DNA of 54,966 nucleotides, taken from IMG/VR virus record IMGVR_UViG_3300014208_000051, positions 1 through 54,966 of that record, one strand, 5' to 3'. Below, piece after piece: positions 1 to 46,816 of this stretch (the stretch's first letter is position 1; the number at the start of each line of letters is the position of its first letter). Below the pieces are notes generated by a model, which was given only the letters and a program-made list of their open reading frames with translations, searched no databases and had not been told where the DNA came from. The DNA comes from a virus. Lineage: Duplodnaviria; Caudoviricetes. The translations under genes were made by a program, and so were the position numbers.

Positions 1-62
1 AATGTGTATATACTTGTTCAATCATTCAGTACAAATATAATAATAATAATCGACACCACCAA

Positions 63-395
63 CTAAAGACCACGTAATTTATCAATTTCTTTCTGTCTTT
101 TTTTATCATTCTGATAACCTGGAAATCTACGATAAACTAACTCAATTGATTGAATTTTTGTTATGTGATTACAAATCAATTGCTCCATAAACTTTGACAC
201 CTTCAGGATTGCAGTGTTTACATTGATATTCTTTTCAATCTCTTTGTGAAATAAACCGATTGAATAGTTATACCGATAAACATAAATTCGTTCCTCATCG
301 GTTTTCATATATTTTAGCAAACCCTCAATTGATAATTCGACAATCGAAGATAATTTTTCTAATCTGTTTCGTTTCTTCATTACATAAACCCCCAT
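63..395 (-). CDS. hypothetical protein
   Basis: 110-aa ORF in the early-type cassette array. Confidence 0.6.
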   Translation of the reverse strand: MGVYVMKKRNRLEKLSSIVELSIEGLLKYMKTDEERIYVYRYNYSIGLFHKEIEKNINVNTAILKVSKFMEQLICNHITKIQSIELVYRRFPGYQNDKKRQKEIDKLRGL

Positions 396-415
396 TTACT
401 TTCAGATTTTTTGTC

Positions 416-610
416 TTAGACTTCTTCTAGTTTAATCATTTTAGGCTGTTCGATTGGAAAACGTTCATCCAACCACTCACGCAAATCCTTTACAGATTCA
501 GGGTTAAGATTCATATTTTTTGTGTCGCCTTCAGTTGAAGTAACCTTAAACGATGCAGGATAAACACCATCAGTTTTAACCCTGTTCAATTGGTCTTTGT
601 AGTAACTCAT
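416..610 (-). CDS. hypothetical protein
   Basis: 64-aa ORF directly behind a TATCTTTG promoter (636-643). Confidence 0.65.
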   Translation of the reverse strand: MSYYKDQLNRVKTDGVYPASFKVTSTEGDTKNMNLNPESVKDLREWLDERFPIEQPKMIKLEEV

Positions 611-635
611 TGTATTTGTTTTTTAGTTTGTACAT

Positions 636-667
636 CAAAGATAAAACTATTTTTCGACACTGCCAAA
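636..667 (-). promoter_or_regulatory. Bacteroidota sigma70-type promoter (-33 TTTG, -7 TATCTTTG), representative copy
   Basis: + strand caaagata 636-643 and ccaaa 663-667; same -7 box near 32, 1005, 2180, 2999, 3664, 4500, 4988, 6107, 6949, 12256, 34298, 37762, 38951, 51950. Confidence 0.8.
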
Positions 668-979
668 TTATCTGTCACCACATTCTAACAAATAATCCAT
701 ACCATCATCTAAATCACTCCATTCTCTGTTAGGAACAATTACATTATCATAATAACGTGCATTTGCAGGACTGATTCTGGTTGTGTTATTCCTTTTAGTT
801 GGGGTTACATTGTTCCAGTAATAGTCTTTGCACTGTGTTCCTCGTTTAGTCTTGCAAAAAACCTGTTGGTAAACTTCTTTGGTAAAGAACTCACCACACG
901 AAGGACATTGACATAAATCCCCGACCTTTTTACTCTTGTTGTCGTTGTAACCCTGTTTTAATTTACTAATTGATGACAT
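668..979 (-). CDS. Cys-rich putative zinc-binding hypothetical protein
   Basis: start re-assigned to MSSISK behind promoter at ~1005; CxxC plus further Cys. Confidence 0.65.
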   Translation of the reverse strand: MSSISKLKQGYNDNKSKKVGDLCQCPSCGEFFTKEVYQQVFCKTKRGTQCKDYYWNNVTPTKRNNTTRISPANARYYDNVIVPNREWSDLDDGMDYLLECGDR

Positions 980-1105
980 TGTGTGTGTGTTTATAATTTC
1001 TATACAAATATACAAATTAATGTAATACCATCCAAATAAAAATGAATTTATTTTTCGGTAGAGGAACTTCAGATCATCGACCCGTTCCGGTGCTCCGGAT
1101 ACAAC

Positions 1106-1162
1106 ATTTTGTTTGGCTCGAAGACAAGTTGACCTTGATAATGTCCTTGAGCCAAACAAAAT
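1106..1162. repeat. inverted-repeat element copy 1
   Basis: attttgtttggctc-29 nt-gagccaaacaaaat. Confidence 0.95.
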
Positions 1163-1258
1163 AACCCCCGTTGCCATCTCCGGGCGCAGATCACCAGCAT
1201 CGTGGGCACAAAAAACCTTCGATGTAATACCGAAGGCTTTAATACAAACTTTAAAAAA

Positions 1259-1639
1259 CTATATCAACTCTAAAATCTTTCTGTATGACTGTTTATATTT
1301 ACGATAATCTTCGATTTTCAATAACCAAAGGGCGTATCGTTTATTTTCTGGAAAGTCATAACAGATACTAATCCTTTTAACATTTGGTTTTTCAGCAACT
1401 GCACGACACCAATCTTTCATGTTCTCCAATGTACCGTATGAGAATACTGTTGTTCCCTTACCGATTCCCATTATGTATGACTGAGGAGCGTATGAACCAT
1501 TCTCGAACATAATTTTTACTATTGCGAACTTATTCGATAGGATTTTCACTATCTTGTCCGTTGGACGCTCCACCTTCAACGCCTCCTCTATTGTCTTGTA
1601 ATGTGGCCTCATGTTGTATTTTTTTAATTGATTCGACAT
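1259..1639 (-). CDS. hypothetical protein
   Basis: 126-aa ORF, start uncertain. Confidence 0.55.
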   Translation of the reverse strand: MSNQLKKYNMRPHYKTIEEALKVERPTDKIVKILSNKFAIVKIMFENGSYAPQSYIMGIGKGTTVFSYGTLENMKDWCRAVAEKPNVKRISICYDFPENKRYALWLLKIEDYRKYKQSYRKILELI

Positions 1640-1695
1640 ATTTTTTTACTTCCTGTAAATTGTACCTGCTCACAATAAGTTGACCTTCAAGTGTC

Positions 1696-1968
1696 TTAGA
1701 CTTCAACGCCTTCATGAATTGTCGATGAGTTATCATATTCGTAGATTTCAGTAAGTTTATCATAACCTTGAAAAGACACCCGAAAATCGTTAAAATCCTT
1801 TTCACTTGCTAACCGAACCGTTCCATCACTAACATAAATCGTTGAACTGTTAGATAAATAACTACCTTTTAAGATTGACGTGTGTAATATACAAACTCGT
1901 TCAGGTTGTTCAGGTAAGATATAACCTAAAGTGTGTTCGTTAAATACAACTAATTTGATTCGTTCCAT
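1696..1968 (-). CDS. hypothetical protein
   Basis: 90-aa ORF, 4 nt downstream of previous gene. Confidence 0.65.
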
Positions 1969-1972
1969 TGGT

Positions 1973-2161
1973 TTAATCTATTGTTAAGTCACCACCAAAA
2001 ACATCTATAACACCAATAGTATTATGTTCGTTGTCAAAAAATTCAACTATGTACATACATCTGTCACCATAATCATATACTATGGTTCCTTTCGTTCCTT
2101 TTTTTATTTCTTTTGTGTCAACAGTTAATGTGACACAATCCAATTCGTTTAATCCGTTCAT
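1973..2161 (-). CDS. DUF4926-like small protein
   Basis: ELDCVTL...KGTKGTIV..Y...YIVEF pattern. Confidence 0.6.
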
Positions 2162-2300
2162 TTGTCTTAGTTTGTATATCAAAGATACAAATTAATGTAA
2201 TACCAACCAAATATAAATGAAACTATTTTTAAAAATGTTTATACTACAAATATACGAATTTTTTTTGATCGATCCAAGAATTCTCCAGGCTTCCTGAAGT

Positions 2301-2354
2301 CATTTTGTTTGGCTCAATGGTAACTGTTCCTGTAAGACAGAGCCAAACAAAATG
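2301..2354. repeat. inverted-repeat element copy 2
   Basis: cattttgtttggctc-24 nt-gagccaaacaaaatg. Confidence 0.95.
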
Positions 2355-2463
2355 GTGAGGTGATCGCAGCTCCGGACGCGTGTGGATACGAAGTCCGTCT
2401 TCGTAAAAACAAAAACCCCCGATGTAATACTACACCGAGGGTTTCACAAACTATATACAAACT

Positions 2464-2823
2464 TTATAAAACACCAACTGTCACAAGGTACGGAATCGTT
2501 TGTTCGTAAGTAAAAAACTCAATCCGTTCCTTTAAGTATTCAACGGTTAACGTGGTACTTTTTGAATCCCCTGTGTTATGGTTAATACCCAACACCAAAC
2601 CGTTTCCCCCGAGTTTCATATTGTTACCCTTGAATCCAAAAAACTTTGAATTTTTGTCAATGTGCAACAACCCTTCGTCATCAACATATATGTCGTTCTT
2701 ATTGTCAACCCGAACAACATCGAACAAATCACATCCAATCTTTTTTTGAATGTCTTTATAGTCACCTACTTCGACTTCTGTAATCGTTTCAGTCTTCACG
2801 TCAATTAATATACCTTTTTTCAT
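2464..2823 (-). CDS. DUF3846-like protein
   Basis: IQKKIGC...IYVDDEGLL...GNGLVLG motif. Confidence 0.7.
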   Translation of the reverse strand: MKKGILIDVKTETITEVEVGDYKDIQKKIGCDLFDVVRVDNKNDIYVDDEGLLHIDKNSKFFGFKGNNMKLGGNGLVLGINHNTGDSKSTTLTVEYLKERIEFFTYEQTIPYLVTVGVL

Positions 2824-3109
2824 TACAATTTGATTTTACCTGTTAATACACTATAACCTAACCAAATAAAAACACACCCAATAATAAAGGGGAATAAATG
2901 GAAACTGTTTAACTGATGGTAAACAATTGATATTCCAAAATACAATCCGATTAATCCTAATACGATTTTCATTTGTCTTTGTTTTAAAGTTTGTACTTCA
3001 AAGATATAAAATAAAACAATACCAACCTACTAAAAATGAATTTATTTTCAATCTTTTTTGTATTATTTTCGCGATCCCGATGCGCCTGAAGATGCCCCGC
3101 ATCATCACC

Positions 3110-3151
3110 CATTTTGTTTGGCTCGAATTATGTTCAATAGAGCCAAACAAA
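3110..3151. repeat. inverted-repeat element copy 3
   Basis: 15-nt spacer containing TTATGTTCAAT. Confidence 0.95.
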
Positions 3152-3206
3152 TTGACGACCCTCGCAAACAGGTACGCTGGATCTTCAGTCCCAAACTTCT
3201 TGGATA

Positions 3207-3241
3207 TAAAAAAACCTCCACCGATTTCTCGATGAAGGTTT
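3207..3241 (-). terminator. intrinsic terminator (near-identical copy at 5703-5734)
   Basis: aaaaaaacctccaccgatttctcgatgaaggttt: hairpin followed by a T-tract on the - strand. Confidence 0.6.
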
Positions 3242-3259
3242 CCCCGAATTGATTTATGT

Positions 3260-3625
3260 TTATTCCATAACCACAACTGAAACCAATAACCTTTTTTTCG
3301 GTGACCAGTTTTTCATGTAGTCTTCAACGAATTGATAAAATCCATACGGTGAATCGGCCACCTTCTGACTCATTTTATCGAAACTCTTTTGTGTCTTAGG
3401 TTGTTTCAAACCCAACAATTTAACCCCTGCGAAAAGTTCACGGTCAACTGTCCGTTCGTCAACATCTTTCTGTGTACCCAAATGAATTGAATGTTCAGGG
3501 TTCATACCGATTAATTGTTGACCATCCATTTTCATCATAAATGACTGAATGAGTAACATGTCTTTACTTAACAATGTTTGTTCATCCTTTGATAACTCCT
3601 TTTGATTTTTTCCGTAATAGTTCAT
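3260..3625 (-). CDS. hypothetical protein
   Basis: 121-aa ORF with its own promoter and terminator. Confidence 0.75.
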   Translation of the reverse strand: MNYYGKNQKELSKDEQTLLSKDMLLIQSFMMKMDGQQLIGMNPEHSIHLGTQKDVDERTVDRELFAGVKLLGLKQPKTQKSFDKMSQKVADSPYGFYQFVEDYMKNWSPKKRLLVSVVVME

Positions 3626-3765
3626 GACGTTGTTGTTTTAAAGTTTGTAATTGATTAACACAACAAAGATATAAAACTATTTTGAATATACAACTATATT
3701 ATACTTTTATTTTTAAATTATTTTTAGGGTGGGCCTGTGCGAATCCACTGCACAGATCACCTAAG

Positions 3766-3815
3766 TTGTTTGGCTCATGAACATAATGGTATATATGTAA
3801 GACAGAGCCAAACAA
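3766..3815. repeat. inverted-repeat element copy 4
   Basis: 28-nt spacer; dif-like CATGAACATAA-TGGTAT-ATATGTAAGAC. Confidence 0.95.
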
Positions 3816-3911
3816 AATGACGACATCCAGCGCGTATGACCCTCTTCCAGCGCTTCTTGAGCATAAAAAAAGGTGACTGTTGCCAGCCACCCTTTAATAC
3901 AAACTTCAAAA

Positions 3912-4475
3912 CTATTTGATGTACAAACTTTCTTTATAATATAAACGGTTTGCATTGTAGTCAGCCACTTCATTATGTTTACCCACTTTACCGTACAACC
4001 TTTTTACATTTCGGTAAATATCCGAACTTGGTCGGGTTCTGTAATTCTTAACCAACTCACAAAACAATTCATTTGATTGGTCAACTTCGTATTGACTTGC
4101 CGTAATACCAAAGTAGTCGGCTTCCCCAACTTCACTAATGAACATACCTGTGTGAAACCCTTCTAATTTGAACCGATTAACATAAATGTCGGCATTACAC
4201 CAAATATATACATTGTTAGGGTTGTTACTTAATACCTTCACAAATGATTCATCAATGATATGACCCTTATAACCGATAAACCCGCCAGCAGTCAAAAGTC
4301 CATAAGGTGAACCATGACCCATTATCATAACTCTGTCGTAGTCGGGAATGATTGTACGAATTTCATCCTGTCGGATTCCGTCACCTGTTAGAACTGTTAT
4401 ACCCTTCATTCCTTTGTAGATAATACTTAAAAAATCTGTTGATTCGTCTTTTGGATGAATGATTAATGTTTTCAT
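3912..4475 (-). CDS. hypothetical protein, possible caspase/gingipain-like (His-Gly...Cys) fold
   Basis: IMGHGS...YIWCNA; fold assignment is inference. Confidence 0.7.
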   Translation of the reverse strand: MKTLIIHPKDESTDFLSIIYKGMKGITVLTGDGIRQDEIRTIIPDYDRVMIMGHGSPYGLLTAGGFIGYKGHIIDESFVKVLSNNPNNVYIWCNADIYVNRFKLEGFHTGMFISEVGEADYFGITASQYEVDQSNELFCELVKNYRTRPSSDIYRNVKRLYGKVGKHNEVADYNANRLYYKESLYIK

Positions 4476-4544
4476 TTCGTTGTTTTAAAGTTTGTACGTC
4501 AAAGATAAGCTTTTTTATAATACCAGCCAAATAAAATGAAATTA

Positions 4545-4961
4545 TTATTTATATCCGAAACAAATTGATATACCGTTGTCTTTCACATAAATGGCGTACT
4601 TTGTGTACTTAGGATTGTAGGTGAAATTTGACGCGTTAGTCTTTAAATAAGTAACAAGGTCAAAATTATTATGGTTCAATAAATTGACCCCTATAAAACA
4701 AACGTTGATGCTAATGCCACCCATCTCATTAATGATTGTCATCACGTTCGGAAATTCACCGTTTTTGTTAAAGTAATTTGTACATTTTTCACAAACTATT
4801 AACAATTCGGCATCCCATTCTAAAATTCCTACAGGAGGAGTAGCGGTAATCCTTAAATTGTTAATTGATTCAAGATATGTGTTTTTTTCTTCAGGAATAA
4901 TATCCTCTTTGGTACAAGAAACCAAAACAAGTAATACCACAAACAAATAAATCCTTTTCAT
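4545..4961 (-). CDS. putative lipoprotein
   Basis: MKRIYLFVVLLVLVS-C lipobox. Confidence 0.65.
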   Translation of the reverse strand: MKRIYLFVVLLVLVSCTKEDIIPEEKNTYLESINNLRITATPPVGILEWDAELLIVCEKCTNYFNKNGEFPNVMTIINEMGGISINVCFIGVNLLNHNNFDLVTYLKTNASNFTYNPKYTKYAIYVKDNGISICFGYK

Positions 4962-5079
4962 AACCATATACTTTAAAGATTGTATAGCAAATATACACAT
5001 TAATGTAATACCATCCAAACAAATATAGATTTATTTTCACGACCATCCTCGATGCGCCCAAAGCTGAGATCAACCGTCT

Positions 5080-5120
5080 TTTTGTTTGGCTCACGTTATG
5101 TTCAATAGAGCCAAACAAAA
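5080..5120. repeat. inverted-repeat element copy 5
   Basis: 15-nt spacer containing TTATGTTCAAT. Confidence 0.95.
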
Positions 5121-5175
5121 TGAACACCATGTCATCTAACTGTACAGGATTAACATTTATCAAAAAAAAAAGGAA

Positions 5176-5475
5176 CTAATCGTTCCCATTCTCTTTAATG
5201 ATACTTAATATCTGACCCCAATACTTTGGCAACATCTTACTTACTCTGGCCTTGTGTTTCTCGTTTAAATGATTAGATTTGTCCGTCAATAACCATTCAG
5301 CAACCCAAGTAAGATAACGACAATCAGAAGAATTGAACCCTCTATTATTTGAAACTTTTGTTTCCTTAATCTTTTTTTCATCTTCAGTTTGTCTGTGATA
5401 GAGAACAATAACACCCCTTTCCATCCACCGAGAATCATTTTTTAATTTGTCTATAATGTTGTCTTTTGTAAACAT
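5176..5475 (-). CDS. conserved-looking phage hypothetical protein
   Basis: LYHRQTEDE...NNRGFN...KYWGQ. Confidence 0.75.
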   Translation of the reverse strand: MFTKDNIIDKLKNDSRWMERGVIVLYHRQTEDEKKIKETKVSNNRGFNSSDCRYLTWVAEWLLTDKSNHLNEKHKARVSKMLPKYWGQILSIIKENGND

Positions 5476-5608
5476 AGTATAAAAATTTAAGTGATATACT
5501 TTGTATTATTACTGATATGAAGTAACTCAAATAAATCCACATTACCAAATATTTTGCCATTTATTTTTTATAACTATCCTCGGTGCATCTGGAGATGAAA
5601 TCAATCGT

Positions 5609-5653
5609 CATTTTGTTTGGCTCAATTTAACATAATCTGAGCCAAACAAAATG
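5609..5653. repeat. inverted-repeat element copy 6
   Basis: 15-nt spacer with ATTTAACATAA, the exact reverse complement of the E. coli XerD arm. Confidence 0.95.
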
Positions 5654-5757
5654 TCCCATATTTGCGCGCCCAGGCGCGCATGGATCAAACTTTATCCAAA
5701 ACAAAAAACCTCCACCGATTTCTCGATGGAGGTTAAAAATCAAAATAAAAAGTTATA

Positions 5758-6081
5758 TTACGCGTTTGAAAGATTAGAAATAAAACCGATTTTCTTAGCC
5801 GGTTCGATAGGTTCATCGTCTGTCAACAGACCCAAAAAATTATCTTCGTCAAGTTCATATGGTTCAATGTTACCATCGTTTTCTGTCAACTGAAAAACAA
5901 TATGTACTGATTCAGTATCGTTAAATTCAACATAACCAACGGTTGACTTTTCGGTGATAATCCATCCCAAATCGATAAAGGTATTAAGTAAACGATTTAC
6001 AAATTCATCCGACATATCGGTGTTGTTAACAACGTTAACCAAATTTTCACCGTCTAATACAAATTGAATGTTCTTTTTCAT
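5758..6081 (-). CDS. acidic hypothetical protein
   Basis: 107-aa ORF with its own promoter and terminator. Confidence 0.7.
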   Translation of the reverse strand: MKKNIQFVLDGENLVNVVNNTDMSDEFVNRLLNTFIDLGWIITEKSTVGYVEFNDTESVHIVFQLTENDGNIEPYELDEDNFLGLLTDDEPIEPAKKIGFISNLSNA

Positions 6082-6212
6082 TGTGTTTGTTTTAAAGTTT
6101 GTACTTCAAAGATACAAATTTATTTTTAATATCCTACAATAAAATAGATTTATTTTTAAATTATTTTCACGACCATCCTCGATACGCGCCCGGACGCATC
6201 CGGAACTCCCTT

Positions 6213-6263
6213 TTTGTTTGGCTCAATCTAACATAACTTTTATTACGTTCAGAGCCAAACAAA
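6213..6263. repeat. inverted-repeat element copy 7
   Basis: 27-nt spacer; dif-like ATCTAACATAA-CTTTTA-TTACGTTCAGA. Confidence 0.95.
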
Positions 6264-6301
6264 TTCTTCCACCTTTATCTCCGTCCCGTGTCGTCCAAAC
6301 T

Positions 6302-6329
6302 ACTTAACATAATATTATTTATACCTAAC
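6302..6329 (-). other. dif-like XerC/XerD site (11-6-11)
   Basis: - strand GTTAGGTATAA ATAATA TTATGTTAAGT versus E. coli dif GGTGCGCATAA TGTATA TTATGTTAAAT. Confidence 0.55.
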
Positions 6330-6373
6330 AAAAAAAACCCCTTTCGGGGTTCTTTTATTATGTTCGTTTGGTG

Positions 6374-6910
6374 TTATTCCACTTCGTAAACCACACCATT
6401 TAACGATAAGGTTTTGATGTTTTCAATCTTTGGGGTGATTACAGAAACAACCCTTTCTTGGTCTTGTCTTGTCGTTTCAGACGGTTTTTTTAACCAACCT
6501 GATAACAATTCCCTTTCGGGTTCGGTCATTGGTTCATCGTTTTTCAAGTATTCAACTTTCGGTTTAACTTCGTCAAAACGTTCAACCATCAAATAATATG
6601 TTAAACCTGTTTTGTCGTCAACCAAAACACATTTGGAAACGTGGGTTTTTCCACTTGGTTTCATGGATTGAAAATCCCCATCCAAACCTTCCTTTTTTTC
6701 GTTACTGTTGACCCTATCTTCGTAACCGTTACCGATTAGATAGTTACAGTTTGTTACTTTTTTAACGATACCAAAAAAAGGATTTCCCCCTTTGTTCATC
6801 GTTGGTACAGTTACCATAGTCACGTTGATAAACGTTGATTTTTCAACTTGTTTCAATACTTCAACCAATTCAGGAACTGAAACTTTTACCACTTGTTTTT
6901 CTGTTGTCAT
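6374..6910 (-). CDS. hypothetical protein
   Basis: 178-aa ORF, promoter at 6949, cUUCGg-type terminator at ~6331-6352. Confidence 0.8.
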   Translation of the reverse strand: MTTEKQVVKVSVPELVEVLKQVEKSTFINVTMVTVPTMNKGGNPFFGIVKKVTNCNYLIGNGYEDRVNSNEKKEGLDGDFQSMKPSGKTHVSKCVLVDDKTGLTYYLMVERFDEVKPKVEYLKNDEPMTEPERELLSGWLKKPSETTRQDQERVVSVITPKIENIKTLSLNGVVYEVE

Positions 6911-7031
6911 TTCGTCGTCGTTTTAAAGTTTGTAATTTGATAACACTACAAAGATAAAACAATATTTCATACCACCAAAATAAAACTACATTTATTTTTC
7001 ATGTTCGATAACATACGAAAATGTTTGGAAG

Positions 7032-7086
7032 TTATCCATAAACCCTTATCAGTTTTCTTTGAAAACTGATAAGGGTTTATGGATAA
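7032..7086. repeat. perfect 26-bp inverted repeat with 3-nt centre
   Basis: ttatccataaacccttatcagttttc-ttt-gaaaactgataagggtttatggataa. Confidence 0.95.
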
Positions 7087-7090
7087 AATA

Positions 7091-7132
7091 TTGTTTGGCT
7101 CAATGAACATAATGTAGGTGTGAGCCAAACAA
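7091..7132. repeat. inverted-repeat element copy 8
   Basis: 20-nt spacer starting AATGAACATAA. Confidence 0.95.
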
Positions 7133-7473
7133 ATTAGACCGACCCATTTTAAGACGATTTAAGACACGATAATTGTGGATGGTATTCGTTGTATGGTTTC
7201 ATGGGGTTCGTTTAAAGAACGTCACGAATGACCCACATAACGACCTACCCTACACTATCCCCACCATACCTCTGTACACCCATAGGGTACACCCCCCCCC
7301 TGCCGTATCCCCCCTTATATACCCCCATTTATCATAGTCTAAACAGGGGGTTAATGATCCGAGAGAAATATTTTGGCATTTTTTTGGTGTTTAGGGAAAG
7401 GTCAATAATATTAAAAAAAAATCTGGAAAAAATTTTGATAATTTGGAATTTTTATGTATTTTTAAATAAAAAA

Positions 7474-22481: not shown

Positions 22482-23732
22482 ATGAAAAATGAAACTGTAT
22501 TTATACAATTGGCGTCCTATCGTGACCCCGAATTACTACCAACATTAAGGGATTGTATTTCCAAAGCAAAATATCCTGAAAATTTAGTATTTTCTATTTC
22601 GTGGCAACATTCAAAAGATGATGCTTGGGATAATCTTGATGAATTTAAAGACGATCCACGATTTAAAATTATTGATATTGATTACCTTGATTCAAGAGGA
22701 GCTTGTTGGGCAAGAAATCTATTACAATTAAACTATGACAATGAGGAATATACATTACAATTAGATTCACATCATAGATTTGTTGAAAATTGGGATGAAG
22801 AGTGTATCGGTATGATTAAACAATTACAAAAAAAAGGGTATAAAAAACCTTTATTAACTGGTTATATTCCATCATATGATCCATCCAATGATCCTGGGGC
22901 TAGAATTAATACACCTTGGAAAATGATATTTGATAGATTTATTCCTGAAGGAGCAATTTTCTTCTTACCTGCATCGATTGATAATTATCTTGAATTAACA
23001 GAACCTATACCATCAAGATTTTATTCGGCGCATTTTTGTTTCACATTAGGACAATTCGTTAGAGAAGTTCCCCACGATCCTGATTATTATTTTCATGGTG
23101 AAGAAATTTCAATTGCTGTTAGAGCATTTACAAATGGATATGATTTGTTTCATACGCATAAAGTAGTTGCATGGCATGAGTATACAAGACGTGGTAGAAC
23201 TAAACAATGGGATGATGACCCAAAATGGGTTGAAAAAAACAATTTCTGTCATAGAAGAAATAGACAACTATTTGGAATGGATGGGGAAATTAAAAACAGT
23301 AGTTTTGGTAAATACGATCTTGGGAGTGAAAGAACTTTAAGGGAATATGAAAAATATGCAGGTATTTCATTTTCAAAACGAGGTGTAACCCAATATACTT
23401 TAGATAATAATTTACCTCAAAAATTTATAATGTCAGATGAAGAATTTGATAATTCAATTATGAGTATATTCAAACATTGTATAGATATTTATCCACATCA
23501 AGTTCCATTGAATGATTATAAATTTTGGGTAGTTGCGTTTGAAAATAAAAATGGTGAAACAATATATAGACAAGATGCAGACATTAATGAAATTAATCGT
23601 ATGAAACAAGATATTGATGGATATTCTAAAGTTTGGAGAACATTTAATATTACGGAAAAACCTACAAAATGGATTGTTTGGCCATATTCTATTAACAAAG
23701 GTTGGTGTGATAAAATTGAAGGAACAATATAA
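22482..23732 (+). CDS. GT60/Skp1-type GlcNAc transferase-like glycosyltransferase
   Basis: IFIQLASYRDPE, GACWAR, LQLDSHHRF, FHGEE motifs. Confidence 0.85.
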   Translation: MKNETVFIQLASYRDPELLPTLRDCISKAKYPENLVFSISWQHSKDDAWDNLDEFKDDPRFKIIDIDYLDSRGACWARNLLQLNYDNEEYTLQLDSHHRFVENWDEECIGMIKQLQKKGYKKPLLTGYIPSYDPSNDPGARINTPWKMIFDRFIPEGAIFFLPASIDNYLELTEPIPSRFYSAHFCFTLGQFVREVPHDPDYYFHGEEISIAVRAFTNGYDLFHTHKVVAWHEYTRRGRTKQWDDDPKWVEKNNFCHRRNRQLFGMDGEIKNSSFGKYDLGSERTLREYEKYAGISFSKRGVTQYTLDNNLPQKFIMSDEEFDNSIMSIFKHCIDIYPHQVPLNDYKFWVVAFENKNGETIYRQDADINEINRMKQDIDGYSKVWRTFNITEKPTKWIVWPYSINKGWCDKIEGTI

Positions 23733-23747
23733 TTATAAATAAAAGTT

Positions 23748-25061
23748 ATGGGTAATAAAATTGTGTTGTGTCAGTATTGGACGGATAATTTAAGTTATGG
23801 GGACTATACATTTGGAATTAATGAAAAATATTGTAATAACAATGGTTACATTTATCATGTGGAAACCAATACGGAAAAAATAATTAAAGGTGTAGGTGAT
23901 AGAGCATTTACATGGTATAAGCCAAAATTAATTATTGAAGTTTTAGAAAAGTATAATCCGGATTACATTTTATTTTTAGACGCGGACGCAATTGTTTGCG
24001 ACTTCTCTCGTAAAATAGAAGAGTTCATAGATGAAACTTTCGATATAATTTGTAATCAAGATTATGGACCCAGTAAATTAAATGCTGGGGTTTTTATTAT
24101 GAAAAATAATGATTGGGTCAAAAATTTCATACAACAATGGTGGAATATTTGTGAAGAGCCCGAATATATTTTTTATAAAAATGCGTTATGGCATGATCAG
24201 ACATGTTTTGGTATTCTAATGGATCGAACAGAAAACATAGATTTACATATTAAAATTCAAAGAGATAATGTGTTGAACAACATTTATTTTAAAAATCCAA
24301 TAGATAAAAATTTTATTTTTCATGCATTTGCGTATGGTAATATAAAAAATAGAACTATTGATAACGCATATTATACATTATTAGGTTTAAAAAAACCTAT
24401 AAAGTTCAAATTATCTGAAATTGCTGATTTTTATTCTACCGATAAAAATTATGAGCATAATTATGTAAAATTATTATATAGCGATTTGTTATATCCATTA
24501 AGGGAAACATTAAAAACTTTTATTGAAATTGGTGTTGCAAATGGCAATTCTGTTGAAATGTGGAGGGATTATTTTATTAATGGAACTATTGTTGGTGCGG
24601 ATATTGCATTAGATATTCCTAAAAATTATTTCGATAATATTGGTAGTGATAGAATAAACTTACTTAATTTAAATCAATCGAGCGAAGCTGAACTTGATGA
24701 TTTTTCCTCTTTATATTCAAACGTAGATGTTATTCTAGATGATGGTTCACATAAAATGTATGATCAACAAAAAACTTTAGCAAAACTTTTTAAAATATTA
24801 AAATCGGGTGGAATATATATTCTTGAAGATTTACATACAAGTATTGAAGTTCATATGCCAGAAAAGGCTATATTCGGTTGGGGTGATCCTAATAAAATTG
24901 ATACATTAACAATGTTAGAGAATTTCGAAAAAAATAGTATTATAAAATCTGATTATATGACAGAAGATGAAATTAGATATTTAAATGAAAATATACAATC
25001 AGTTAAAGTTCATAGAATGAGACCAGATTGGAGTATAGCTAGTGTAATAATAAAGAAATAA
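23748..25061 (+). CDS. GT34-like glycosyltransferase fused to class I SAM methyltransferase
   Basis: FLDADA, LNAGVF, WHDQ; then IEIGV, ILDDGSH, YILEDL. Confidence 0.8.
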   Translation: MGNKIVLCQYWTDNLSYGDYTFGINEKYCNNNGYIYHVETNTEKIIKGVGDRAFTWYKPKLIIEVLEKYNPDYILFLDADAIVCDFSRKIEEFIDETFDIICNQDYGPSKLNAGVFIMKNNDWVKNFIQQWWNICEEPEYIFYKNALWHDQTCFGILMDRTENIDLHIKIQRDNVLNNIYFKNPIDKNFIFHAFAYGNIKNRTIDNAYYTLLGLKKPIKFKLSEIADFYSTDKNYEHNYVKLLYSDLLYPLRETLKTFIEIGVANGNSVEMWRDYFINGTIVGADIALDIPKNYFDNIGSDRINLLNLNQSSEAELDDFSSLYSNVDVILDDGSHKMYDQQKTLAKLFKILKSGGIYILEDLHTSIEVHMPEKAIFGWGDPNKIDTLTMLENFEKNSIIKSDYMTEDEIRYLNENIQSVKVHRMRPDWSIASVIIKK

Positions 25062-25063
25062 AT

Positions 25064-26032
25064 ATGATAGGAATTGTATATCATAACTTCTTAACGGGGA
25101 ATTGGAAAACAATTGTAACGGAACAACTGAAACGTCTTAAAGATTCAGGATTATATGATAGTTGTGACATTATGTGGGCAACCGTAAATTTAAACCAACA
25201 TAAAGAAGATGAATATAAAGAACATGTGAAGGAATATGATAAAATTCAATTTGACTTTCAAGTTAATAACGGAGCAGAATATCCTGGTATAAAAAAAGTT
25301 AAAGAATTGGGTAATACATATGATGACATTAAAATTTTTTATTTTCATACAAAAGGTGTTAGTAACGACTGGACTGAATGGGAAAATAAAGAAAGAAATG
25401 AAGAAAAAGTGCGAAACGTAAGTGCTTGGAGAGAATGTTTAGAGTATTTTTTAATTGATAGATGGAAAGAATCATTGGAAAAATTAGATGAATATGATAA
25501 TGTAGGTGTTACTTGTAACGGTGGTTGGTATTGGGGAAATTTCTGGTGGTCACAATCAAAACATATTAAAAAATGTAGAGAAGTTGATTATTGGAGTAGA
25601 TGGGCATATGAAGCTTGGCTAAACGATTATGTTTCAGGACAAAAAAACTTTGAGTGGTATAAATTCACTTATAATCCTTATCTTGGGGAAATAGTTACTG
25701 ATTGGTATAAAAATCCCGAAAAATTTAAAAATTCTAAGATAATTTTACATAAAGCATTATATGGAACGTCACGATTTGCAATTGATGAAGGATATGGAAA
25801 TATCCCGCTGGGACAATTAGTTGATGTTACAGATAAAGTTAATGAATTATTATCAAGAAATAATTATGAAAAATTTGATTTATATTTAAATCATATTAGT
25901 TTGGGTATTGAGGACCCAGTTCCAGGGTTTAGAAAAGTGGCATATATTGACTTTTCATTAGATATTGACCCTAATAGAATTTATAATATTGGGGTTCATG
26001 AGGGTGGATCGATTGAGTTAAACTTTAATTAA
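25064..26032 (+). CDS. putative glycosyltransferase
   Basis: FYFHTKGV and GNFWW motifs, operonic with GT genes. Confidence 0.65.
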   Translation: MIGIVYHNFLTGNWKTIVTEQLKRLKDSGLYDSCDIMWATVNLNQHKEDEYKEHVKEYDKIQFDFQVNNGAEYPGIKKVKELGNTYDDIKIFYFHTKGVSNDWTEWENKERNEEKVRNVSAWRECLEYFLIDRWKESLEKLDEYDNVGVTCNGGWYWGNFWWSQSKHIKKCREVDYWSRWAYEAWLNDYVSGQKNFEWYKFTYNPYLGEIVTDWYKNPEKFKNSKIILHKALYGTSRFAIDEGYGNIPLGQLVDVTDKVNELLSRNNYEKFDLYLNHISLGIEDPVPGFRKVAYIDFSLDIDPNRIYNIGVHEGGSIELNFN

Positions 26033-26033
26033 T

Positions 26034-28424
26034 ATGAATGAATATACTGAACGTATAAAAAAATGGGATAAACTTTCTAGAATACATGCACAAGGAAGTG
26101 TATTCGAAATAGTGAGATTATTAGAAAATAAAAAAAAATTAACGATAATAGATGTTGGCGCAAATAGCGGAACTTTATTTGATATGCTTTGTGAGAAACT
26201 TGATATTGATAAAGCAATTTTGTTTGAACCACAACCATTATTATTTGAATATATTAAGAAAAAATATGAAAATAATGATAAAATTATTGTTGAAAACTTA
26301 GCGTTATCTGATTGTATTAAGAAGTTTAATCTAAATGATGTTGCACTTCAATATGAACTTGAACATTATGATGAAAATAATAAGGGTTACAATTTAGGAT
26401 TAACTTCAATTAATTGTAACGAAAACGGCATTTCTGAAACTACTTCATTTGACTTAATTAGAAAAAAATATAATTTAGATAAAATTGATCTAATAAAAAT
26501 TGATACCGAAACCGAAGATTTATTAGTTCTAAAAGGATTTACAGAAACAGTTAGGGAGTTGATAAATAAACCATTAATAACTTTTGAGTGTAATTGGTGG
26601 GCTAATTATACTTATGACGAGTCTAATAAAATTTTAAATGATTTTTGTAAAATTAATGGTTATGATAATAATATAAATTTAAATGTGAGAGGTGATTTTT
26701 ACATTCATCCTCCAAAGATAAAAAATATGACAAACATTAATAACAAAAACCTAACAATGGTTACAGGCTTATGGGATATGGGCAGAGGAAACATGAAAGG
26801 TTGGGGTAAACGGGATTTTCAGCAATATAAAGACAGATTTTTTGATCTTTTACAGACAGATGTTAATATGGCGATATGGATTCCAAGAGATTTGGAAGAT
26901 GAAGTATGGAAAATACGAAAAAAAGAAAATACTGTCATTTATAATAAAGAAATTATCGATTTTAAAACATGGTTCAATTTTTATGATGAAGTACAAAAAA
27001 TAAGAACCAATGAAAATTGGAGAAATTTTGCTGGATGGCTACCAGAATCACCTCAAGCGGAATTAGAATTTTATAATCCAATGATGATGTCTAAAATGTT
27101 TTTGTTAAATGACACATCAATTTACAATCCATTTAATACAGAATATTTTTATTGGATTGACGGTGGATTAACTTCAACAGTTCCAACTAGTTATTTTACA
27201 AATGAAAAAGTTTTAGATAATCTTGTTTATTATACAGAATTATATGATAAGTTTATTCATATTACCTATCCTTATACATCGAATGATGAAATACATGGGT
27301 TTGAGAGGAAAAAAATGTCTCAATATTGTGGCGTTGACTTTGTAGATTATGTTGCAAGAGGTGGTTTTTTTGGGGGTAAAAAGACTATTTTAAATGAAGT
27401 TAACGCATTGTATTATAATATCCTTGAAAAGACTTTAAAGGATGGATATATGGGCGCTGATGAGTGTCTATTTACAATTATGTGTCATCGTTATCCTAAT
27501 TTAATTCATCGATTTGAAGTTGATGGAAATGGTTTAGTTTGGCCATTCTTTGAAAATTTATCGAAAATTAAAGAAGAAATTAAGTTAAATGTACAAGGAA
27601 AGAAACCTTTTAGTGCCATTAAAACGTCATTATATGTAATTACATATAACTCACCTATACAATTTGAAAAACTTTTAGAATCATTTGAACAGGCAGATAG
27701 AGATTTCATAGATGTTCCCAGAAAAATTCTTTTAAATAATTCAACTGACAGAACAACAGATGACGAATATCGTAAATTATGTGAAAAATATAATTTCGAG
27801 GAAATAAAGAAAGATAATATTGGAATATGTGGCGGAAGACAATTAGTTGCTGAACATTTTGATGAATCTGATTCTGATTATTATATTTTCTTTGAGGATG
27901 ATATGAATTTATATACAAAATCAGGGGATTTATGTGGTATGGGGTTTCCTAGATATATTAATAATTTGTTCAAAAGAACGTTAAACATTATTCATAATGA
28001 GCAATATGATTATTTAAAATTATCATTTAGTGAATTTTTTGGCGATAATTCAGTACAATGGGCTTGGTATAATATTCCACAATCAGTTAGAGAAGAATTT
28101 TTTCCTGATAAAAAGAATTTACCAATTAGAGGCACCGATCCTAATGCGCCAAAAACATTATTTAAATACATTAAAAGATCAAATGATATAACTTATATAG
28201 AGGGAAATGTACATTATGACAATTGGCCATTGTGGTTCACAAGACAAGGTAATAAAAAAGTGTTTATTGATACAAAATGGGGAAGACCTTATGAACAAAC
28301 TTGGATGAGCCACGTATTTCAAGAACAAATGAAAAGAAATATTAATAGTGCCGTTTTACTAATGTCACCAATTAATCATCATAGATTTGATTTTTATCCT
28401 GGTAACGAGAGAAGAGAAAATTAA
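26034..28424 (+). CDS. FkbM-type methyltransferase - HtrL/YibB-like - GT-A fusion protein
   Basis: IDVGANSG...KIDTE; VTGLWD...YWIDGG...GGFFGG; FFEDD. Confidence 0.8.
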   Translation: MNEYTERIKKWDKLSRIHAQGSVFEIVRLLENKKKLTIIDVGANSGTLFDMLCEKLDIDKAILFEPQPLLFEYIKKKYENNDKIIVENLALSDCIKKFNLNDVALQYELEHYDENNKGYNLGLTSINCNENGISETTSFDLIRKKYNLDKIDLIKIDTETEDLLVLKGFTETVRELINKPLITFECNWWANYTYDESNKILNDFCKINGYDNNINLNVRGDFYIHPPKIKNMTNINNKNLTMVTGLWDMGRGNMKGWGKRDFQQYKDRFFDLLQTDVNMAIWIPRDLEDEVWKIRKKENTVIYNKEIIDFKTWFNFYDEVQKIRTNENWRNFAGWLPESPQAELEFYNPMMMSKMFLLNDTSIYNPFNTEYFYWIDGGLTSTVPTSYFTNEKVLDNLVYYTELYDKFIHITYPYTSNDEIHGFERKKMSQYCGVDFVDYVARGGFFGGKKTILNEVNALYYNILEKTLKDGYMGADECLFTIMCHRYPNLIHRFEVDGNGLVWPFFENLSKIKEEIKLNVQGKKPFSAIKTSLYVITYNSPIQFEKLLESFEQADRDFIDVPRKILLNNSTDRTTDDEYRKLCEKYNFEEIKKDNIGICGGRQLVAEHFDESDSDYYIFFEDDMNLYTKSGDLCGMGFPRYINNLFKRTLNIIHNEQYDYLKLSFSEFFGDNSVQWAWYNIPQSVREEFFPDKKNLPIRGTDPNAPKTLFKYIKRSNDITYIEGNVHYDNWPLWFTRQGNKKVFIDTKWGRPYEQTWMSHVFQEQMKRNINSAVLLMSPINHHRFDFYPGNERREN

Positions 28425-39563: not shown

Positions 39564-41004
39564 TTATGATCTTTTTTATTAACGTTTTGATTTCGTTGAT
39601 ATTGTTTTTAAGTTTGATGCTCTTAACAATTTCAAGAGCATCATCCCTAGTCATATTTGGGTTTTCATACCAAGCGTCTTGAACGGCATCCAAAATTTCC
39701 CTGAATATAGGTGACGGTTTAAATCCTAATTGGATTAAATCATTACCATCAATAGGTAATTTCATATTTTCCTTTCTAACATTAGTATTCAAAGTTTTTA
39801 ACCTTTCCCTAACGTTATTAATTTGGTTGGTCATAGCCGTATTGCCAGCATGTGAAATGTTATCAGCGTGAATGGCATCCAAAACATATTCAAGGTTATC
39901 ACCAACTGAAGCAACAAACTTTCTTAATGTTTTATCACTTAGTTTAGATGTGTCATCTTCACCATGTTTCAAATACATATGGTTTCTAACACCATTTGCA
40001 ACGGCATCGATTAAATCGTTTGGATATTTCAATCTTGTCATAACTTGTCTAACAAGTCTTTCACTTGCTTCTTCGTGACCGTAGAAATGAACTTTACCAT
40101 CAGGATCAACAGATTTCGTCACGGTTTTACCAATATCATGAAACAACGCAATTAATCTTGTTTTCAATTCAGGTGGTGTGTTCTTCAATACAGTCATTGT
40201 ATGACCGAAAACATCTTCAGTATGATAATCATTTTGTGCCATACCGATAGCGGCATTGAATTCTTCAATAACATACCTTAATAAATGTGAATCTTTTAAT
40301 AGTTGTATACCTTTTGATGGGTCAACTGTTAATAAAATTTTATTTAATTCATCGGTAATCCTTTCTCTGGAAATATCACTTATTGAATTGGCATGTTTTT
40401 TGATTCCATTTAAAACATCGTCTTCCATCTTAAAATCATATTTAACGGCAAACCTAATTGCTCTTAACATTCTAAGAGGGTCTTCCTTGAATATGATATC
40501 AGGATTAGATGTTGTCCTTATAATACCGTTTTTAATGTCATTTACACCCCTTCCACTTAAATCAAGTATTTCGTCCGTTGAAACATTTTTCATCAATGAA
40601 TTGATGGTTAAATCCCTTCTCATGGTTTCATCCATAAGGTCACCGTTCGTTACATCTGGATTTCTAGATCCTTTGGAGTAAGTTTCTTTCCTTGGGGCAA
40701 CAAACTCCAGATCAATATTTGGCAGTTTATATTTGTTATGGTTTAATGATAGTTTTGATGTTCCGTATCTTGGGTAGATTACTGGGTTACTGTTTTCTTT
40801 GTAGTTACCCAATTTTTGTCCTAACCAAGTCGAAAATATAATACCCGCGTCAATGTCACCATTTACAACAAAATCTAAATCCTTTGGTTTCTTACCCATT
40901 ATTTCGTCACGAACGTATCCACCAACGATATATAATTTTCCCTTCCATTCAGTATTTTTTATAATATCTTTTATAAAATATAAAACTTTTTCAAATTCAT
41001 TCAT
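39556..41004 (-). CDS. cca: CCA tRNA nucleotidyltransferase with HD domain
   Basis: VGGYVRD, DLD, RRDLTIN, EDPLRMLRAIRF, HD. Confidence 0.9.
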   Translation of the reverse strand: MNEFEKVLYFIKDIIKNTEWKGKLYIVGGYVRDEIMGKKPKDLDFVVNGDIDAGIIFSTWLGQKLGNYKENSNPVIYPRYGTSKLSLNHNKYKLPNIDLEFVAPRKETYSKGSRNPDVTNGDLMDETMRRDLTINSLMKNVSTDEILDLSGRGVNDIKNGIIRTTSNPDIIFKEDPLRMLRAIRFAVKYDFKMEDDVLNGIKKHANSISDISRERITDELNKILLTVDPSKGIQLLKDSHLLRYVIEEFNAAIGMAQNDYHTEDVFGHTMTVLKNTPPELKTRLIALFHDIGKTVTKSVDPDGKVHFYGHEEASERLVRQVMTRLKYPNDLIDAVANGVRNHMYLKHGEDDTSKLSDKTLRKFVASVGDNLEYVLDAIHADNISHAGNTAMTNQINNVRERLKTLNTNVRKENMKLPIDGNDLIQLGFKPSPIFREILDAVQDAWYENPNMTRDDALEIVKSIKLKNNINEIKTLIKKIINE

Positions 41005-41146
41005 TCTTTATTATATAAGATAAGTTAGTTATTAAATTTTGATCTTTACCTAAATAAAACAAATAATTAAAATTATTAATTTTACAAAATTCGATAGTAA
41101 TATTAGCCTTTTTAATGTCATTTTTTTTTATCCACCCTTTCTTATC

Positions 41147-41641: not shown

Positions 41642-41710
41642 TTTTTACTCCTTCCTTTTTACATCGTCCCTTATTTAATTGATGGTAGATGTTTTTAGAT
41701 AAATAGTTTC

Positions 41711-42262
41711 TTATAAAAAGAAACTCATAATTTTATCTTTAATACCCGTTTGTTTGATTCCTTCATAAACGTTCGGACACCACACAAAATTTTTTAAACC
41801 CCATGTACTATCTTCATTTATATCTGTCTTAGTTATTCCTAAATACATGTCATCAACGGCAACCCAATGTGTAACTTCCGGATGTTTTTCTAACCAAGCA
41901 TGGATTTCAAAACATCTTGTTTGTTCATGACCATAATTTCTATTCCATTTGAAATCTTTTGGAACTTCGATATCATTGATTGACGTTGTAAAATCAAGTG
42001 GTTTTTTTATAATCCCTTGATGTTCATAGTATTCTCCAAGCTCTTCTACGGTTGCCCATTGTTTCCAATCGGACGAAACTACAATTTCACAATCAGTTTC
42101 TTCAATAATTTTATTTAATGTATTGATAGCCTTTTTATCAAAGTCATCAAATCTGTCAAGAATGGATTTATCGGTCATCGAACCTTTTCCTTTCTTAAAT
42201 CTAGTACCGAAGTTATTCAACAAACAAATGACACCATCATGATCTAAAAATAATACTTTCAT
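41711..42262 (-). CDS. HAD-family phosphatase (RNA-repair 'Swiss army knife' type)
   Basis: FLDHDGV, IVVSSDW, WVAVDD. Confidence 0.8.
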   Translation of the reverse strand: MKVLFLDHDGVICLLNNFGTRFKKGKGSMTDKSILDRFDDFDKKAINTLNKIIEETDCEIVVSSDWKQWATVEELGEYYEHQGIIKKPLDFTTSINDIEVPKDFKWNRNYGHEQTRCFEIHAWLEKHPEVTHWVAVDDMYLGITKTDINEDSTWGLKNFVWCPNVYEGIKQTGIKDKIMSFFL

Positions 42263-43933: not shown

Positions 43934-44018
43934 AGGGAAGGGTGGGATTCGAACCCACGATGAGCTTACGCTACCAGATTAACAGTCTGGACTTTTCGGC
44001 CTCTAAAGCAACCTACCC
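43934..44018 (-). tRNA. tRNA-Asn (GTT) with long variable arm
   Basis: near-duplicate of 43665-43751. Confidence 0.75.
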
Positions 44019-44555
44019 ATTAATTATTGTAACACCTTCATGAATTTCCCCGTGACAATTTGAACAAACTAATACACATTTATCAACTTCATTTTTTAAT
44101 TTTTCAAAAGATAACGATTTGCCTGAAATTGAAAAATCTTTTTCATTTGAATCTCGATGATGAAAATGTAATGAAGTTGAGCATTTATCGTAACCACAGA
44201 TTTCACATTTACCACCTTTATATTCAATTAATCTTAATTTTACTCTTTTTCTCCATAAAATTACTGATTCTGAAGAAGTTTGACGTGTCTTATTTTTTAA
44301 GGTAACATATTTTTTAACAGTTTCATATGCGTGACCTTTTAATTTAGCTACTTTTTTTAAACTTCCAATTTCATCATACAATTTTTGTAATTCAATTTTA
44401 TCAGTATCATTCAATCTATCAGAACATCCACCTAATTTTTCTAAATTACAATGATATGAAACCGTTGATAATGCACATTTTAATTCTTTACTAATTGTTT
44501 TAAAGGACTTTCCTTGTTTTCTTAATTCAATAATCTTTTCGTAATATCTACTCAT
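44013..44555 (-). CDS. HNH homing endonuclease with N-terminal HTH
   Basis: CEICGY...LHFHH...CVLVCSNCHGEIH. Confidence 0.85.
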   Translation of the reverse strand: MSRYYEKIIELRKQGKSFKTISKELKCALSTVSYHCNLEKLGGCSDRLNDTDKIELQKLYDEIGSLKKVAKLKGHAYETVKKYVTLKNKTRQTSSESVILWRKRVKLRLIEYKGGKCEICGYDKCSTSLHFHHRDSNEKDFSISGKSLSFEKLKNEVDKCVLVCSNCHGEIHEGVTIING

Positions 44556-44611
44556 TATTAACATTTTTAGTTAATAATAAATATACATAAAAATAATCAA
44601 AATAAAAAATG

Positions 44612-46729: not shown

Positions 46730-46816
46730 TACCTCTGATGGGAGTCGAACCCACACGTCCCTCACGGAACGACAGATTTTAAGTCTGTTGCGTACTGCCA
46801 ATTTCGCCACAGAGGT
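46730..46816 (-). tRNA. tRNA-Leu (TAA)
   Basis: type II cloverleaf. Confidence 0.9.

Follow-up and report, generated by a model that had tools for sequence, protein, structure and literature searches.

What are the eight palindromes that punctuate the first genes of IMG/VR virus record IMGVR_UViG_3300014208_000051, and why do their centers resemble sites of the Xer recombinases? The stretch of DNA analyzed here, which we call the window, is the whole of that record (54,966 bases, linear; CheckV completeness estimate, 19%), which we take to be part of the genome of a jumbo phage with a Bacteroidota host. A sequence-only reading of this DNA had taken the loops of the palindromes for XerD/dif-like core sites in both orientations. 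We favor, with moderate confidence, another answer: the palindromes would form the core of terminator-palindrome-promoter junction modules in an array of early-gene cassettes, comparable to the promoter-early stem-loops (PeSLs) of T4-type phages, and would not be Xer sites. The evidence lies in the layout of the junctions, in arms that co-vary in six related loci, in the confinement of the palindromes to one genome region, in a positioned ACAT within the loops, and in an indel of a cassette, an inverted loop and a swapped loop seen by comparison with relatives.

The palindrome, TTGTTTGGCTC-N15..29-GAGCCAAACAA, is present in eight copies in the window, all within 1109-7132. Arm matches with at most one mismatch number 17 in the window, against 0.85 expected. 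The loops of copies 1 to 8 measure 29, 24, 15, 28, 15, 15, 27 and 20 nt (173 nt in total), and the copies are as follows.

1109..1159, copy 1: arms TTGTTTGGCTC/GAGCCAAACAA around a 29-nt loop without AACATAA.
2305..2350, copy 2: 24-nt loop, also without AACATAA; motif B' (CTGTAAGACA) adjoins the right arm.
3114..3150, copy 3: 15-nt loop GAATTATGTTCAATA, the inverse of the orthologous loop in loci L103 and L110.
3766..3815, copy 4: 28-nt loop made of motif A (ATGAACATAA), 6 nt and motif B' (ATATGTAAGACA).
5082..5118, copy 5: 15-nt loop ACGTTATGTTCAATA; left boundary of a window-specific cassette.
5613..5649, copy 6: 15-nt loop in which one 11-mer is exactly the XerD arm (minus strand TTATGTTAAAT, 15.6 bits); right boundary of the same cassette.
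6214..6262, copy 7: 27-nt loop; two A-type motifs, inverted to each other, stand 6 nt apart; 0.9 bits as a 28-mer on the dif profile described below.
7091..7132, copy 8: 20-nt loop; the first array junction on the transcribed (minus) strand.

All genes between 63 and 6910 lie on the minus strand. Most of the cassette genes match no family of known function, and the only matches are to DUF4926, DUF3846 and five unnamed PHROGs. Read along the minus strand, the junctions follow one order: an intrinsic terminator, a GC-rich spacer of about 50 nt, the palindrome, a second GC-rich spacer, an AT-rich stretch, a -33/-7 promoter, a conserved leader (TACAAACTTTAAAACAA) and the start codon. At seven of the eight copies the T-run of the terminator ends 43 to 67 nt upstream of the palindrome, and at seven of eight a TAnnTTTG box is found 86 to 134 nt downstream of it. 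The palindrome has no T-run of its own and sits between an ordinary terminator and an ordinary promoter. The promoter pattern TTTG-N16..23-TAnnTTTG, which is of the Bacteroidota type, occurs 17 times in the window against 6.6 expected, a count reached in none of 100 shuffles; six array promoters match it in full.

63..6910, minus strand: array of small genes at 63-395, 416-610, 668-979, 1259-1639, 1696-1968, 1973-2161, 2464-2823, 2823-2972, 3260-3625, 3912-4475, 4545-4961, 5176-5475, 5758-6081 and 6374-6910.
5707..5734, minus strand: intrinsic terminator, as an example; others at 2412-2445, 3868-3895, 5171-5187 and 6336-6351.
4988..5019, minus strand: Bacteroidota-type promoter, as an example; others at 636-667, 1005-1036, 2180-2211, 4500-4531 and 6949-6979 (repeat families D1/D3).
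7032..7086: perfect 26-nt inverted repeat with a 3-nt center (TTATCCATAAACCCTTATCAGTTTTC and its complement), between copy 8 and the promoter of gene 6374-6910.

Folding of the junctions returned little beyond the arms themselves. The consensus fold of all eight consists of the 12-bp arm helix only and contains no compensatory pairs, because the arms are identical. Single-junction folds had z-scores of -1.3 to -4.5, on both strands. The left and right flanks of the palindromes form one loosely symmetric family, cognate flanks pair no better than noncognate ones (permutation p, 0.91 and 0.93), and Rfam at its gathering level gave no match on the palindromes.

Related loci were found through the cassette protein encoded at 6374-6910, which led to seven IMG/VR loci (L031-L037); a search with the protein of gene 3912-4475 found no relatives. 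Six of the seven loci (L031-L036) have a recurring intergenic palindrome of their own, and L037 has none. The arms of these palindromes (TTAATTGGCA, GTTTTGGCAG, TTAGTCTGGA, TTGATTGGCA and TTGTTTGGCA) differ from those of the window and co-vary, one arm with the other. The order of terminator, palindrome and promoter recurs in the three loci that were printed in full (L031, L033 and L070). Loops in the six loci are 4 to 50 nt long and typically carry GTAATAC or GTATTAC, not AACATAA; in L033 the inner motif stands twice in one loop, in direct and not inverted orientation. Three relatives were searched over their whole record, and in each of them the palindromes keep to a single region. It spans 236-261 kb in G004, which is complete, 41-58 kb in G003, which is 93% complete and has one stray match at 285 kb, and 127-136 kb in G001, a record 44% complete. 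As a side observation, at 885-1074 of L031, from relative G001, a palindrome and its flank are tandemly duplicated about 156 nt apart, the second copy with one arm mismatch.

All seven related loci encode the 178-aa protein of gene 6374-6910, with 47 to 61% identity, and its gene mostly lies at the edge of the palindrome array or close to it; the junction upstream of the gene is retained in several relatives. It matches no known family and no PDB sequence. Its structure model (pLDDT, 82.7) had no Foldseek match at an E value of 0.001 or less. Its likeness to small beta-barrels (Sm/Hfq, WYL, YaeO) is weak: a wide VIA search gave Z scores of at most 6.5, below the trustworthy level. Arms that are invariant within a genome and different between genomes, together with the junction kept upstream of the 178-aa gene, suggest that a genome-encoded factor may read the arms.

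A rule for the loops came from relatives that share the arms of the window. Metagenome contigs scanned for the same arms yielded 58 palindromes in 43 loci. Palindrome flanks and loop motifs led us to accept 20 of these loci as relatives of this phage; 19 of these 20 also matched the first 12 kb of the window (BLAST, at least 60 nt). The remaining 23, for the most part GC-rich hairpins, were set aside as single palindromes without relation to it. The full palindrome pattern was found in no further IMG/VR record, and a looser pattern returned 18 loci, again single unrelated palindromes. The window and the 20 accepted loci together hold 43 copies with 36 distinct loops, and the motif that adjoins the arm in these loops comes in three variants: A (WWTNNAACATAA), B (TGTCTTACAT) and C (GGTATTACAT). 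Variant A is the XerD-like sequence, and variant C is the motif of the distant relatives. What all three variants have in common is a positioned ACAT, which lies at offset 6 from the arm in 25 of 72 half-loops and at offsets 4 to 6 in 33 (background, 0.0055 per position), so that 27 of the 36 loops have at least one. In loops with the motif in both halves, ACAT and ATGT are 1 nt or 10 to 11 nt apart, and the 10-nt class produces the 11-6-11 look that had suggested dif sites.

The octamer GGTATTAC also fills palindrome loops of the relatives. In the window it occurs seven times against 1.65 expected, always on the minus strand, and six of the seven are within the array (1022-5012): three in promoter spacers directly past the -33 TTTGG, one in a terminator loop (1224-1231) and two inside genes. 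With the octamer directly past TTTGG, those three promoters resemble an arm followed by a C-type half-site, a hint that the palindrome element is tied to the promoters.

Comparison of the window with its relatives shows what has happened at the palindromes. The sequence-only reading had supposed that cassettes are exchanged there, and the following segment supports this.

5093..5638, minus strand: window-specific cassette (terminator, gene 5176-5475 and promoter region), missing from an X3 contig and from L085.

In both the X3 contig and L085, a single palindrome with a 29- to 30-nt A+B' loop takes the place of copy 5, the cassette and copy 6, and the breakpoints are the inner edges of the arms (runs X1-X4 were searched as assembled contigs). 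The flanks of L085 match at 128 of 139 positions to the left of copy 5 and at 111 of 125 to the right of copy 6. The past inversion of loops that had been hinted at is likewise visible: at 13 of 15 positions the loop of copy 3, GAATTATGTTCAATA, is the inverse of the orthologous loop TATTGAACATAATCA in L103 and L110, whose left flanks match those of copy 3 at 121 to 128 of 137 to 140 positions. Locus L109 has the flanks of copy 1 on both sides (left, one mismatch in 70 nt) around a loop of the copy 2 type (22 of 24 positions); with the flanks kept and another loop between them, the center alone was replaced. L113 and an X4 contig lack precisely the one small gene 1973-2161; cassette 3151-3804 is missing in L085, L103, L110 and L113, and the gene order of L091 is reshuffled relative to the window. 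No inversion was found in the X1 and X2 contigs, in which rarer inverted forms or circles of the population would not show. Four joints in those contigs (668>6920, 668>631, 670>2161 and 662>1032) were rejected as repeat-graph artifacts; they are weak, with sides of 35 to 88 nt (35 to 40 nt in three of the four), in repeated promoter and leader sequence.

The strings from which the Xer proposal had been built are all in place. By exact search, ATTTAACATAA is found at 5625-5635 in copy 6, and it is the reverse complement of the E. coli XerD arm, as E. coli dif ends in TTATGTTAAAT (PMC3025954). The opposite-orientation string TTATGTTCAAT is at 3128-3138 in copy 3 and at 5096-5106 in copy 5, the copy 8 string AATGAACATAA is at 7102-7112, and the 28-mers of copy 7 (6226-6253) and copy 4 (3776-3803), said to fit the 11-6-11 geometry of dif, are present too. 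Whether AACATAA exceeds its background has two answers. Over the whole window it does not (35 matches against 30 expected, with at least 35 in 23 of 100 shuffles), whereas it is concentrated in the loops, six of eight having it against 0.11 expected in 173 nt. Because the loops are copies of one repeat family, these six come close to one inherited event rather than six independent ones.

We scored the loops on a dif profile made for Bacteroidota. A degenerate core taken from the E. coli, B. subtilis and Frankia dif sites printed in PMC3025954 found an identical 19-mer in Hymenobacter and Saprospiraceae genomes. With at most one mismatch, the refined core pattern matched 51 of 101 Bacteroidota genomes exactly once each, against 5 matches for the reversed control pattern. 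The sites of 30 genomes yielded a profile with the consensus TTGTCCTATAA-TTTATA-TTATGTTAAAT, on which those real sites score 23.1 to 39.1 bits. The best 28-mers on the eight palindromes score, as listed, -20.1, -18.1, -8.1, -7.9, -3.2, +2.6, +0.9 and -2.2 bits, which speaks against the proposal that the loops are Xer core sites. The 11-6-11 fit claimed for copies 4 and 7 holds as geometry in the long loops (ACATAA-N6-WTAYGT) and not as a score on the profile. For the XerD arm alone, copy 6 is identical to the Bacteroidota consensus and at 15.6 bits falls inside the range of real arms (12.4 to 16.0); copies 3, 5 and 7, at 10.7 bits, are below the weakest real arm, and copies 1, 2, 4 and 8 are below 10 bits, with no XerD-like motif found in copies 1 and 2. 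Window-wide, the XerD-arm profile has 13 matches of at least 10 bits, against 13.3 in shuffles, and 4 of these 13 are in the loops. None of the eight loops has a XerC-arm match of at least 8 bits, and the 15-nt loops cannot hold an 11-6-11 site.

A free-standing dif-like site was a further part of the proposal.

6302..6329, minus strand: 28-mer GTTAGGTATAA ATAATA TTATGTTAAGT (plus-strand string ACTTAACATAATATTATTTATACCTAAC, located by exact search), between the terminator of gene 6374-6910 and copy 7.

It is the one element that looks dif-like, with 20.7 bits, the top score of the window (the next is 7.7), which was reached by 3 of 300 first-order window shuffles (p about 0.01), but it stays below the weakest real site (23.1) and is kept only in the closest relative. 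In that contig, L085, the 28-mer and the surrounding 60 nt are identical (21.3 bits), and in the more diverged L110 the site is degraded. Apart from the L085 copy, 228 kb of relatives contain no site of at least 12 bits, and the dif-core pattern in records G001-G004 is at the level of the reversed control. One exact dif-core match in G001 (7265-7283) was set aside as chance; it scores 9.5 bits and falls inside a 216-aa open frame.

These scores bear on the idea that the loops, or at least 6302-6329, serve as substrates or decoys for host XerC and XerD, in cassette movement, multimer resolution or XerD titration; the sequence-only reading had also named XerD half-sites that would unload SMC complexes, as in Bacillus. 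The consensus XerD arm of copy 6, the inner geometry ACATAA-N6-WTATGT that the long loops share with dif, the standing of 6302-6329 and the share of XerD-arm matches that fall in the loops all count for it, and dif modules demonstrate that Xer sites can bound mobile modules (PMC13141974). Against it are the whole-site scores, the lack of a XerC arm, the subthreshold arms of copies 3, 5 and 7, a window-wide XerD-arm count at chance, and the relatives, in which same-arm loops carry B or C and distant ones GTAATAC. The L109 swap, with its flanks kept, points to conversion and not a reciprocal site-specific exchange. We hold an Xer role to be quite unlikely, conceivable mainly for 6302-6329 and weakly for the long loops. 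A bolder form would make the long loops true tyrosine-recombinase core sites (ACATAA-N6-TTATGT) between inverted arms, at which host XerCD or a phage enzyme captures, excises and flips cassettes, with the 15-nt loops as half-site scars and 6302-6329 as a resident Xer site. If true, this would be a phage-borne counterpart of integrons or dif modules; we judge it very improbable. The dif likeness of the palindrome centers is real but partial and probably incidental, and the XerD-arm likeness is most likely an incidental property of one of three loop variants.

Could the palindromes belong instead to a dedicated system, as folded (hairpin) or core-type sites of an unrecognized phage recombinase that captures or excises promoter-bearing cassettes in the manner of integron attC sites? 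The attC sites of integrons are imperfect palindromes with conserved outer parts, a variable center and array-specific sequence, and they bound same-strand cassettes. The palindromes here likewise have inverted arms and a variable center, are identical within and different between genomes, and bound same-strand cassettes, one of which is present or absent exactly between arms; the variable arm spacing suits a folded site better than a duplex dimer site, and G004 encodes an Xer-like tyrosine recombinase. Yet Phage_integrase was found in only one of five records (one of the two near-complete ones), about 50 kb from the array in G004, and is Xer-like with a score below every NCBIfam cutoff, including that for integron integrases; it was not found in 93%-complete G003, nor in the window, which is 19% of its genome. 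Y1_Tnp (Y1 HUH) and Resolvase (serine recombinases) were found in none of the five records, and on the sequences of these records there appears to be no recombinase family common to the clade. No integron integrase was found beside the array in the sequence of the window. Integron cassettes lack promoters and share a common one; here each cassette has its own promoter and terminator, with a TAnnTTTG box past seven of eight junctions and terminators before the junctions. The arm polarity (GTTTGGC ... GCCAAAC) would be the reverse of the attC R''/R' consensus, the inner motif of L033 is a direct and not an inverted repeat, the flanks have no copy-specific complementarity (permutation p, 0.9), and one indel left a solo arm. 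We give such a system little credence.

A role as operator only is unlikely as well, if less so. The palindrome would then be the binding site of a regulator, such as an early-gene shut-off protein linking the palindrome to a half-site in the promoter, and recombination would be an incidental effect of repeats. Its place upstream of each early promoter is kept in diverged relatives, the arms are genome specific, the ACAT-to-ATGT spacing classes of 1 nt and 10 to 11 nt are one helical turn apart, and the promoter -33 regions resemble an arm plus a GGTATTAC half-site. Its distance from the promoter, however, is not fixed, no candidate regulator was found in the array, and an operator role alone leaves the gain and loss of genes that end at the arms unexplained. 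Scarcely probable, finally, is a selfish mini-element, with the palindrome and flanks as a REP- or MITE-like mobile unit colonizing intergenic spaces. A short palindromic repeat with many intergenic copies, both flanks of which belong to one loosely symmetric family, might look like this, but a scan of 185,579 GTDB genomes with the full pattern gave just eight loci, single and unrelated palindromes, where a REP or MITE would show dispersed cellular copies or presence and absence of the unit. The arrays are confined to one phage region at a constant terminator-promoter position, and no transposase (five records) and no empty site were seen. Sigma-54, N4-type hairpin promoter and IS200/IS605 readings were considered and dropped; no matching feature or gene was present, and Y1_Tnp was not found.

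The junction-module reading, which we prefer, would run as follows. The eight palindromes would be the conserved core of a three-part module separating small, individually transcribed, early-type jumbo phage genes, and their identical arms would offer short homology for the general recombination of the phage, as PeSLs do in T4-type phages. Exchange between identical arms could add or remove a cassette; conversion could swap a loop while both flanks are kept. Because both orientations of each arm exist, a loop could be copied or turned either way by conversion or by intramolecular exchange, which would explain the mixed polarity. A putative genome-specific DNA-binding factor, most likely one that regulates the adjacent early promoters, may read the arm with its ACAT half-site.

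Several points weigh against this interpretation. The 86- to 134-nt distance from palindrome to -7 box means that there is no fixed promoter phasing, and an arm spacing of 12 to 30 nt is awkward for a simple dimer on duplex DNA. The long loops have the inner geometry of dif, and the exact XerD arm and the 20.7-bit site fall within the same 700 nt; together these dif-like features exceed the expectation from pure coincidence. Where cassette 3151-3804 is missing, L085 and L103 retain a full palindrome, about 50 nt and a solo right arm, so one of the two indels examined closely is unclean. The identity of the arms within a genome could stem from conversion alone, with no trans-acting factor; no binding protein was identified, nor a candidate regulator among the array genes, and the phage may have a recombinase of its own in the part of the genome beyond the window.

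Among known systems, PeSLs are the nearest (PMC2839356, PMC4122927). PeSLs are repeated modules of an AT-rich region, a host-type early promoter and a stem-loop between small uncharacterized genes in a plastic region, and it is at the modules that genes have been inserted, deleted or replaced between relatives. In PeSLs the stem-loop is a terminator as well, and mini-circles form. The junctions here are likewise repeated composites of an early promoter and a stem-loop, and the indels and replacements of relatives end in the modules (one uncleanly). They differ from PeSLs in that the palindrome is a separate third part without a T-run, between a normal terminator and promoter; in arms invariant within a genome and co-varying between genomes, around a center with a positioned ACAT; and in promoters of the Bacteroidota type (TTTG/TAnnTTTG), in unrelated jumbo phages. 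Among the entries listed by a literature search, supplements aside, there was no earlier description of such arrays in Bacteroidota or jumbo phages.

With dif, pdif and dif modules (PMC3025954, PMC13141974), the array shares the XerD 11-mer of copy 6, the ACATAA-N6-WTATGT geometry and modules of one or a few genes. In contrast to those sites, the loops have no XerC arm, score more than 20 bits below real sites, are in many cases too short for 11-6-11 and lie within 13-bp perfect inverted arms, and relatives use other motifs. The dif modules of Acinetobacter are flanked by complete, inversely oriented pdif sites, with alternation of C and D modules (PMC13141974). The window sites are incomplete and do not alternate: the A-B' loops are of one polarity in copies 4 and 8, in the single joint of X3 and L085 and in L110, with B' only in copy 2. 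IMEX elements such as CTX phage and the Bacteroidetes microvirus proviruses (PMC3091885), small integrating single-stranded DNA elements that have a dif-like sequence and no recombinase of their own, resemble the window in its site 6302-6329 and in the lack of a recombinase in the window sequence. Those elements have one or two sites, whereas the window is a fragment of a jumbo double-stranded DNA phage whose one good site is kept only in its closest relative.

The assignment to a jumbo phage agrees with the remainder of the window and with its relatives. Among the relatives found via one window protein are two contigs of about 310 kb; one is complete and has terminal repeats. The sole phage-database DNA match (distant blastn of 1-8000) is 62 nt at 82% identity to the 225-kb Tenacibaculum phages PTm1/PTm5. 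Two groundwater metagenome runs contain window sequence, and no RNA run is listed among the runs that do. ARAGORN reports 24 tRNA genes in the window, which also has a tmRNA, a GOLLD RNA, RNA-repair genes and many homing-endonuclease genes. About 20 tRNA genes, as well as HNH endonuclease genes, are interleaved with a set of RNA-repair and RNA-handling genes at 35879-50167, and a C-rich tract (runs of 8 and 6 C) occupies 7290-7330, in a gene-poor stretch just past the last palindrome. The main features outside the array are these.

51034..51448, minus strand: GOLLD RNA, full-length match (280.7 bits; gathering score, 150), adjoining tRNA and GIY-YIG endonuclease genes.
33828..34231, minus strand: phage-borne tmRNA (80.4 bits; tag peptide ATSEVAVA by ARAGORN).
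37661..37732, minus strand: tRNA labeled Pyl by ARAGORN; its anticodon, CTA, would read the TAG stop codon.
35879..36904: HNH-RNA ligase fusion.
39556..41004: CCA-adding enzyme with an HD domain.
41711..42262: HAD_SAK_2 domain protein.
44013..44564 and 46779..47279: HNH endonuclease genes.
48605..50167: TROVE/Ro-like protein.
22482..28424, plus strand: cluster of a GlcNAc-type glycosyltransferase, a glycosyltransferase-methyltransferase fusion and an FkbM-methyltransferase/HtrL protein.

The working Bacteroidota dif profile from 30 genomes carries a lesson of its own, that striking identity to the XerD 11-mer does not by itself make an Xer site. For the biology of large phages, the turnover of small accessory genes shapes host range and counterdefense, and the swapping of such genes has been documented experimentally mainly in T4-type phages, at PeSLs. 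In a clade of Bacteroidota jumbo phages unrelated to these, the array described here would be a junction system of similar kind, with a dedicated palindrome, genome-specific arms and a positioned inner motif, and it offers direct comparative examples of cassette gain and loss, loop inversion and loop conversion.

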